DNA of 64,000 nt from contig JBCCHT010000005.1 of assembly GCA_039028615.1 (NCBI GenBank), positions 252,104 to 316,103 on the forward strand. The letters are read 5' to 3'. The DNA is from Myxococcota bacterium (GTDB lineage: Bacteria > Myxococcota_A > Polyangia > Nannocystales > Nannocystaceae). Positions within the stretch are counted from its first letter, which is position 1. Each line of letters begins with the position of its first letter. Positions 26,129 to 27,145 of the stretch are shown piece after piece. The position numbers and the translations under genes are program-made. Below the pieces are notes generated by a model. It did no database searches. It saw nothing but the letters and a program-made list of their open reading frames with translations, and was not told where the DNA came from.

Positions 26129-27145
26129 TCAGGGGGGAACCGGTACGCCATCGAATGGCGAGATGTCCGCGTTTTCGGGCCTCTCCTGCTGAACGCAGCC
26201 CTCGTTCTTGGCGTATTTGATGTTCTTCCATGCAGTCGTAGACGTATGATCCGAAATTCCTCCCACCCAACCTCGGTATTGTGTCGGCCTGAATCCGAGC
26301 AGTAGAGCCTCATCTTCTTCCTCGACCTCAGGGGTGTCTGGTTGAAACGCAGGGGTGGCACTGCTGCTGCTGGTAGTCCTGTACTGATATCGTATATCCA
26401 GCGGAAAACCAAGCATGTCGAAGGGGCGGCCTCCACCTATGAGATGGTCACAGTCTTTCACGTCTTCTTCAACGTAGAAACTCTTGATTCCGCCATGCCA
26501 CATTATACATACATCCCCGAATGTCTCTTCTGTCGATTCTTCTGAGACGTTGTTCATCCCGCGTTCTGTTGTTGAAACTGAGACCCATACCTGCGACCCT
26601 TCAGAGTACGTCTTGAAGTGATCGTAGGGATCTGCATTTTCTGTCAATTTCGGATTCTTCGAAGCCGCCATAAATCCGAATTTTTGCCATGAATTCGGGT
26701 GCCGCCCATCCACTCGGTAGAGCTCTGGAATGTCCAAGACACGACCTGATGACCTGCTTCCGCTGGCCTTCTGGCTGACCAAGTTCATCCATTGCCGTAG
26801 GTCGCATGCTCCAGGAGAGGAGTTTGAGGTCTCTAGATATTGTTCAAGGCTCGCGATCTGAGCCGTGTCGATCGATGGTGCTTCTCCGCTGACGACGACG
26901 TCGTCCAAAACGAGATCGAGTACTTGTGCGGCTGCGTCTGCTACGCAGTCGGCCTTGAGCTCGTCACCTACGCATCTGCATTGTTCGTTGGCTCGGTTGA
27001 CCACGAAATTTCCGAACCCGAACGACGTCCATCTCGTACTGGAGACGCTCGCTGGTGGCGCAGAGGGATCTCGAGTTGAATCGCAGCCGACGAGCGTTCC
27101 ACAGGCAAGCATATATGATAATGCTGAGGTGAGAGATATTCGCAT
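26129..27145 (-). CDS. Lipoprotein with putative cholera/pertussis-toxin-like ADP-ribosyltransferase domain
   Basis: Lipobox LVGC; LYRVDGRHP..GF, YDH, WVSVST, EEEDEALLLG, TQYRGW in the order and style of R-S-E clade ARTs; low GC. Confidence 0.7.
   Translation of the reverse strand: MRISLTSALSYMLACGTLVGCDSTRDPSAPPASVSSTRWTSFGFGNFVVNRANEQCRCVGDELKADCVADAAAQVLDLVLDDVVVSGEAPSIDTAQIASLEQYLETSNSSPGACDLRQWMNLVSQKASGSRSSGRVLDIPELYRVDGRHPNSWQKFGFMAASKNPKLTENADPYDHFKTYSEGSQVWVSVSTTERGMNNVSEESTEETFGDVCIMWHGGIKSFYVEEDVKDCDHLIGGGRPFDMLGFPLDIRYQYRTTSSSSATPAFQPDTPEVEEEDEALLLGFRPTQYRGWVGGISDHTSTTAWKNIKYAKNEGCVQQERPENADISPFDGVPVPP

Follow-up and report, generated by a model that had tools for sequence, protein, structure and literature searches.

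The A subunits of AB5 toxins (pertussis S1, EcPltA, cholera toxin A1, LT and LT-IIb) are exported by the Sec route and contain disulfides, and the DNA-modifying ADP-ribosyltransferases (ARTs) of the scabin and pierisin type carry a Q-x-E motif. TreX, an Rhs toxin of Xenorhabdus bovienii that modifies Arg of FtsZ (PMC11606950), and Tre1 are interbacterial ARTs with an R-S-ExE signature, and E-x-E is typical of Arg-modifying toxins (PMC11606950; PMC7764402). Among polymorphic toxins, which follow a pattern of one leader with swapped cargoes, Hint and immunity, the Tox-ART-RSE signature was given as RxDxR, S, [DN]xN and E (Zhang 2012, PMC3482391); the same work describes the Amoebophilus lipobox effectors APD1 and APD2, with variable C-termini and a predicted surface anchor. 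In Myxococcus, the SitA lipoprotein toxins depend on TraAB, have an escort domain of ~375 aa and nuclease cargoes, and are always accompanied by a sitI partner (PMC8546572). The Kil toxin of Myxococcus was described as still to be discovered (PMC8460266), and the Kil tip complex may itself carry toxic activity (PMC12075869).

The gene considered here lies in a window of 64,000 nucleotides, i.e., the whole stretch of DNA that was analysed, from contig JBCCHT010000005.1 of a member of the Nannocystaceae (Myxococcota; assembly GCA_039028615.1) whose genome has 12.3 Mb, 68.3% GC and 96.7% completeness. Genome size, GC and the abundance of kinase-TPR and vWA-lipoprotein paralogs likewise suggest a myxobacterium, probably of this family. 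The original prediction, made from the letters of the window, was that a low-GC ORF of 338 aa encodes a lipoprotein-tethered, cholera/pertussis-toxin-like ART in an island. The ORF (Table 1) translates without an internal stop, and every motif quoted in that prediction was recovered when the codon positions were checked. Its GC content is 53.1% and its GC3 0.56, compared with 68.3% GC for the genome and a median GC3 of 0.80; a GC3 this low occurs in 13 of 8142 coding-like ORFs of the genome. In the marine metagenome that is the probable source run, a Logan contig spans 25115-28103 with 0 differences; it is not an independent sample.

Table 1. Coordinates of the features discussed; positions refer to the window unless preceded by a locus handle (L003 etc.).
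Feature	Position	Strand	Basis or remark
Predicted lipoprotein ADP-ribosyltransferase ORF	26129..27145	(-)	338 aa from ATG 27145; alternative ATGs 27160, 27172
Lipoprotein signal peptide, lipobox L-V-G-C21, Asp +2	27083..27145	(-)	Sequence pattern; Cys and +2 Asp conserved in P0003, P0004
Lipobox Cys21 codon (L-V-G-C)	27083-27085	(-)	
Cys-containing helical domain, residues ~41-127 (C56-x-C58..C67, C114)	26765..27025	(-)	Predicted model; also precedes ART in TadE fusions
Predicted R-S-E clade ART domain, residues ~136-312	26210..26740	(-)	Structure searches, ESM features, weak Pfam Scabin-like
R144, predicted NAD-binding Arg (R-x-D-x-R-x-P)	26714..26716	(-)	Invariant in 4/4 covering homologs; strand 142-146
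H176 codon	26618-26620	(-)	
W187-T192 codons	26570-26587	(-)	
S189-V-S191, predicted S-T-S-type motif	26573..26581	(-)	Both Ser invariant in 5/5 covering homologs; strand 188-191
E275-E279 codons	26309-26323	(-)	
E277-D-E279, predicted E-x-E catalytic loop	26309..26317	(-)	Both Glu invariant in 6/6 homologs
Y290 codon	26276-26278	(-)	
Left boundary, decayed lysR 3'-end copy	25060..25283	(.)	95% over 225 bp; Pfam LysR_substrate C-terminal part
Right boundary, 3' end of intact lysR (35507-36481, -)	35509..35733	(.)	Repeat match
Transposase relic, presumably IS3-type	27262..27708	(-)	Match to integrase-core ORF in G048
IS66 transposase relic	27801..28346	(+)	Intact paralog is Pfam DDE_Tnp_IS66, E 7e-70
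YhgA/Rpn-like transposase relic	35329..35466	(-)	Paralog is Pfam Transposase_31, E 6e-38
Short ORF	34922-35170	(-)	No Pfam hit
TadE-like + scabin-like ART	L003:7914-9455	(+)	Pfam E 2e-13
TadE-like + deaminase-like end	L004:7893-10028	(+)	Weak
TadE-like + deaminase-like end	L005:7797-10109	(+)	Weak
TadE-like + pre-toxin Hint	L059:4577-6046	(+)	E 3e-10; frame ends inside domain
TadE-like + nuclease-like end	L058:2812-5013	(-)	Motif
Imm49 gene overlapping nuclease-like fusion	L058:1982-2815	(-)	E 2e-25; inside pilin-like cluster

Residues ~136-312 very probably form an ART domain of the R-S-E (cholera/pertussis/scabin) clade, as judged from the predicted fold, because the structure searches agree on the clade and are joined by the register of the Arg and the conservation pattern. 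The Arg, S-x-S and Glu are conserved, in order and on predicted strands. R144, H176, S189, S191, E277 and E279 show no variation in any covering homolog, and only 21 of the 119 comparable alignment columns are invariant overall; the residue between E277 and E279 varies among homologs, and two cysteines in an insertion within the domain, C213 and C232, are invariant in 6/6. A loose R..S..E pattern matches the ART ORF and no other among 124,732 stop-to-stop frames genome-wide, in a test biased by the pattern having been drafted from recall once the ORF was known.

AlphaFold2 given two sequences returned no fold (pLDDT 32); given seven, two of five models folded (mean pLDDT 61, pTM 0.62) into a four-helix domain (residues 41-127) and an alpha/beta domain, with residues 154-186 below pLDDT 50. 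In the Foldseek comparison that had been proposed as a check of the fold, all 18 listed rows in ranks 1-21 are pertussis, EcPltA or cholera A chains, the best at E 2.2e-3, with no match reaching E 0.001. VIA, which is independent of Foldseek, placed TreX, Scabin, EcPltA, pierisin, pertussis S1, LT and CARDS in its top seven among 48,161 chains, with Z 4.7-6.0, rmsd 3.0-4.7 and 111-139 residues aligned, which are middling values, since a Z below 8 can reflect a common arrangement. All 30 rows of a second structural comparison are R-S-E ARTs, and the ungapped alignment starts put R144 on residue 7 of CT/LT, residue 9 of pertussis S1 and residue 10 of CARDS, which we take to be the catalytic Arg in each case. 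The ESM features of residues 136-338 resemble (0.91-0.93) clusters partly carrying Pertussis_S1, Scabin-like, Enterotoxin_a or NarE, the three best clusters being unnamed and the shared-feature counts (126-153) lying below the tool's mark of 170. Foldseek, VIA, the ESM features and residue invariance agree on the R-S-E fold and E-x-E loop that had been anticipated, and the E-x-E loop suggests Arg as the likely acceptor.

In sequence searches, the sole Pfam match was to Scabin-like (PF22596; E 0.003-0.008, 16.5-17.7 bits, below the gathering cut-off of 27), found in one of seven members of the protein family. No curated family of Pfam, NCBIfam or PADLOC recognises this subfamily above cut-off; PDB chains gave no relevant sequence match for the window protein (P0001) or for the family profile; and PF22596 found nothing in 73 genomes of the taxonomic family, in a search in which no positive control matched. 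The family profile scores a classical scabin-like ART at 3.3 bits, compared with up to 5.8 for shuffles (hhalign probability 1.7%), and since it misses this domain above shuffles the family appears to be a divergent subfamily. RxDxR, S and E of the Tox-ART-RSE signature are present, and [DN]xN is not recognisable in the alignment. The original likening to cholera and pertussis toxins holds for fold and motifs, but neither for sequence match to PDB chains nor for AB5 organisation. A sub-cut-off Pfam match in a single member, the lack of a PDB sequence match and the unfolded two-sequence model would also suit an unrelated disulfide-rich lipoprotein with coincidental motifs, but this reading is hardly credible when the structure search, the language-model features and the invariant residues point to one and the same clade.

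Comparison with the described systems suggests that the protein may work like an R-S-ExE toxin, as a member of neither the AB5 nor the SitA systems. First, its best structural match, tied with the next rows, is TreX (PDB 8s2m; Z 6.0, rmsd 3.0, 111 residues aligned, 14% identity), and the R-S-ExE signature is common to both; whereas TreX is T6SS/Rhs-delivered, Cys-free and paired with an immunity protein, the window protein has a lipoprotein leader, conserved Cys, a helical domain and an insertion, and no immunity gene. Second, the AB5 A subunits and CARDS are like it in fold and motif order (Z 4.1-5.6 for most rows, 9-20% structural identity), whereas the window protein has a lipobox, no B-subunit gene nearby and an environmental host. 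Third, R-x-D-x-R, S and E are common to Scabin (Z 5.7), pierisin (Z 5.0) and the window protein, which carries E-x-E, unlike the DNA-modifying enzymes of this type. SitA is likewise a lipoprotein that ends in a toxin domain and is encoded on mobile DNA, whereas the window protein has no sitI and is not a nuclease. APD1 and APD2, likened here by description, are a precedent for lipid-anchored effectors, but from a different phylum and with no ART cargo named in the available text (PMC3482391). The Kil/Tad tip minor pilins of Myxococcus have a TadE-like domain in common with two relatives of the window protein (P0006 and P0012), but the window protein itself has no pilin domain. The enzyme class is well known, and no description of a lipoprotein ART in myxobacteria was found in the literature searched; the novelty would lie in the divergent subfamily and in the link to TadE fusions, the latter mattering more.

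The predicted lipobox (LVGC) is present, and its lipid Cys is retained in P0003 and P0004; the signal peptide was judged by pattern rather than by a signal-peptide predictor. It is uncertain which of the ATGs at 27145, 27160 and 27172 is the start: all three yield a basic-hydrophobic lipoprotein leader ending in L-V-G-C, the last giving a 30-residue leader that resembles that of P0004, and a weak purine-rich stretch lies upstream of 27145 only. An automated start at 27253 (P0002) is unlikely because it begins directly behind an IS relic. Asp at +2 causes inner-membrane retention of E. coli lipoproteins, and lipoprotein sorting in M. xanthus apparently relies on Lys +2 and Ala +7 (PMC3222651). 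The ART lipoprotein has neither of the latter, and by the rule for E. coli its conserved Asp would keep it at the inner membrane; by a crude pattern, Asp +2 occurs in 60 of 591 candidate lipoproteins of the genome. Residues 41-127 are modelled as four helices (block pLDDT 60-87), and C56, C58 and C67 are retained in 4/4 homologs that cover them. Altogether seven Cys follow the lipid Cys, five of them conserved across both leader types (see below).

On balance, and with modest confidence, we favour the reading that the gene encodes a horizontally acquired, lipid-anchored, exported Arg-type ART/NADase weapon of an apparently undescribed toxin family, which would be harmless to its maker by export and would reach its targets by surface display or vesicles. 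The conserved lipobox points to Sec export and lipidation at Cys21, and the conserved Cys to disulfide folding outside the cytoplasm. The maker would need no immunity protein, because export removes the enzyme from cytosolic NAD+ and substrates. In the weakest step, after display on the surface by a T2SS or loading into vesicles, the protein would enter a competing, prey or grazing cell, possibly with the aid of the helical Cys domain; as predicted from the fold and the E-x-E loop, the enzyme would then transfer ADP-ribose from NAD+ to Arg of a target protein, or hydrolyse NAD+.

The absence of an adjacent B subunit or immunity gene, noted in the original prediction, was borne out: the gene is flanked by the IS3 relic and apparently non-coding DNA, no immunity-like ORF was evident on inspection of 22 ORFs of at least 30 aa in 25250-26200, and the B-subunit families PF02918 and PF01376 gave nothing genome-wide, in a search in which no control genome matched. 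Regarding routes of delivery, two GspD secretins score over cut-off in the genome; the T2SS displays lipoproteins in other bacteria (PMC12802150), and the vesicles of myxobacteria contain toxic cargo, although their reported efficacy is low (PMC10433427). The SitA-like delivery by outer-membrane exchange that had been suggested fared poorly. The protein does match SitA in outline, being a lipoprotein that ends in a toxin-type domain and is encoded on mobile DNA in a likely myxobacterium (PMC8546572), but a kin-discrimination toxin passed on by TraAB is very unlikely here: TraA (TIGR04566 N-terminal model) was found in 0 of 73 genomes of the taxonomic family, including the host's own, while the positive control, Sorangium G471, matched at E 6e-84; no partner gene follows the ART gene; and only ~115 residues separate Cys21 from the enzyme, compared with the ~375-aa escort domain. 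CglD was not found over cut-off in a search without a positive control, and the available text of PMC6372800 makes no mention of Nannocystaceae. TIGR04565, tried as a model for TraB, proved to be an unrelated outer-membrane protein family. CpaB and TadE were not found in the host genome in searches whose positive controls matched, which implies that the host has no Tad/Kil pilus.

That neither TraA nor a Tad system was found, together with the lack of an immunity gene, a B subunit or a recognised uptake domain, is also what one would expect of a resident ecto-enzyme on the envelope of its maker, which would use external NAD+ (e.g., from lysed prey) as an NAD glycohydrolase or as a modifier of surface or periplasmic proteins; the vertebrate GPI-anchored Arg-specific ecto-ARTs offer an analogy. 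The lipid anchor, the conserved Cys, the E-x-E loop and the +2 Asp would suit such an enzyme too. We consider it unlikely, however: the extreme rarity of the gene, its foreign composition and the IS-littered block around it fit conflict genes better than metabolism, and the same module occurs on TadE leaders that elsewhere bear toxin-type cargoes.

This rarity is evident from the searches for relatives. Genome searches recovered the gene from 0 of 72 other genomes of the taxonomic family and 0 of 400 other genomes of the phylum, both samples, and from 0 of 401 in the order to which G470 belongs (a sample, without a positive control); the protein family was absent from the scanned JGI metagenomes, GTDB contigs, viral contigs, plasmids and phages. 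Protein searches gave six usable relatives: P0003 (47% identity; a cluster of 4) and P0004 (44%) span the full length and share the lipoprotein leader, P0005 and P0008 are partial, and P0006 and P0012 are 26-29% identical. Another candidate, P0007 (E 6e-6), was dropped as a low-complexity repeat artefact. No alternative cargo was found in protein searches behind the leader and helical domain of the window protein.

In P0006 and P0012, a TadE-like domain, followed by the Cys-helical and ART module, takes the place of the lipoprotein leader, so that the same ART stands behind two leaders, i.e., a lipoprotein leader in P0001, P0003 and P0004 and a TadE-like one in P0006 and P0012. Pfam recognises the TadE-like domain at E 0.25 in P0006 and not in P0012; by alignment, the domain of both is 44-45% identical to that of the fusion at L003. 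A profile built without the fusions (lipoprotein-type members plus P0005) scores the ART parts of P0006 and P0012 at 43 and 33 bits, compared with a maximum of 2.9 in 400 shuffles, and their helical parts at 6.0 and 5.4 bits, compared with a shuffle maximum of 4.3.

The TadE-like N-terminal domain retrieved seven loci, from records of Myxococcales, Polyangiaceae, Sorangium or delta proteobacterium. The same TadE profile finds short TadE proteins within complete Tad operons, and at Sorangium locus L008 the short form lies between prepilin peptidase and Tad, CpaB, secretin and ATPase genes. Among 40 distinct loci (of 47), a set biased to the best scorers and leaving aside 14 of 44 matches, at least 300 residues extend beyond the TadE domain in 5 of 40. 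A TadE alignment search restricted to proteins of 911-2600 aa found nothing. The five TadE fusions in Table 1 carry long linkers. At L004, a deaminase-like domain is weakly suggested by an HxE..PCxxC pattern and by five Pfam hits of E 0.08-0.14; a PDB sequence search gave no support for it. The C-terminal end at L058, which is nuclease-like by its motif, has no Pfam match; the family of the overlapping immunity gene, Imm49, is reported to pair with Tox-REase (PMC3482391). As a separate observation, a small predicted lipoprotein gene directly follows each deaminase-like fusion (L004:9947-10678 and L005:10106-10753, both +).

By their sequences, the TadE fusions look like an undescribed pilin-fused polymorphic toxin set. 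A TadE leader with swapped cargoes, Hint and immunity supports the reading of the window's ART domain as a conflict warhead, because this domain occurs with two trafficking leaders that are unrelated to each other, and one of these is found at other loci with swapped toxin-type cargoes and an immunity gene. Enzyme-fused TadE is not described in the available text of PMC12075869 and PMC8460266, the word 'pilin' is absent from that of Zhang 2012 (PMC3482391), and no description of TadE-linked polymorphic toxins was found in the openly accessible literature searched. We propose tentatively, as an idea that falls short of probable, that myxobacteria of the Polyangiales type use a TadE pseudopilin as the base of polymorphic toxins, with the tip of the Tad pilus presenting the toxin; the window gene would then encode this warhead with a lipoprotein address, in a host that lacks Tad pili. 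Since recognisable toxin domains are fused to pseudopilins, in one case together with an immunity gene, the toxic-tip idea can be tested directly; if the proposal is true, Kil-type contact killing would gain its first named enzymatic effectors, and a new route of toxin export would be added.

The island setting is upheld by a ~10.4-kb block of lower GC that lies between duplicated lysR 3' ends and has IS relics inside (Table 1). Such flanking repeats are the pattern expected after integration into the 3' end of a gene, and no intact integrase was seen among the ORFs of the block. In G047, a genome of the same genus, a single contig carries the flanking core genes, which are 24.8 kb apart and enclose other content, and the site is therefore variable. 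The composition of the ART gene is strongly foreign, and horizontal acquisition is likely.

The 3' end of the IS3 relic lies ~90-117 bp upstream of the possible ART starts, and a scan for one promoter type found 0 sigma-70-like promoters in 24800-28500, compared with 1.0 expected in shuffles. The codon use of the ART gene is unadapted, and a second copy in the host, at C26:197906-198088 (+) in another low-GC patch, survives as a fragment whose match to the ART profile is confined to the C-terminal third (E 0.0014-0.0026 genome-wide), with an unrecognisable acidic catalytic loop and no other piece found. All of this is consistent with a silent passenger, i.e., a true ART that arrived with the block, was severed from its promoter or partner genes by the IS3 element and is useless to its present host. 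Such a passenger seems quite unlikely, however, given that the frame of 338 codons is intact with every conserved residue kept, that the neighbouring transposases are themselves relics, and that the scan spans a single promoter type. The exported weapon remains the reading that we favour.

Besides the ART gene, the block holds a Ser/Thr kinase-TPR gene (28379-31315, +), a vWA lipoprotein and a further predicted lipoprotein of ~460 aa (33219-34727, +), which has its lipobox after an internal ATG and belongs to no Pfam or NCBIfam family; paralogs of the kinase-TPR gene are very many in this genome, and those of the vWA lipoprotein are also many. The short ORF at 34922-35170 presumably resembles the N-terminus of integrase-core transposases. 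A sequence of ~120 bp that abuts the left lysR repeat (25270-25391) recurs in several copies in same-genus genomes, and also on contig C50 of the host, and is possibly a mobile-element end. No excised or empty-site joint was seen in contigs of three runs; in run X1, contigs within the block (25115-35202) have a depth of 12.7-14, compared with about 16 on either side, which hints weakly, depth not being a share of cells, that part of the population is without the block. In the low-GC patch of C26, an orphan acidic lipoprotein gene (198282-198986) follows the ART fragment, and two tandem, mutually similar predicted lipoprotein genes of unassigned family lie at 195582-197058 (-).
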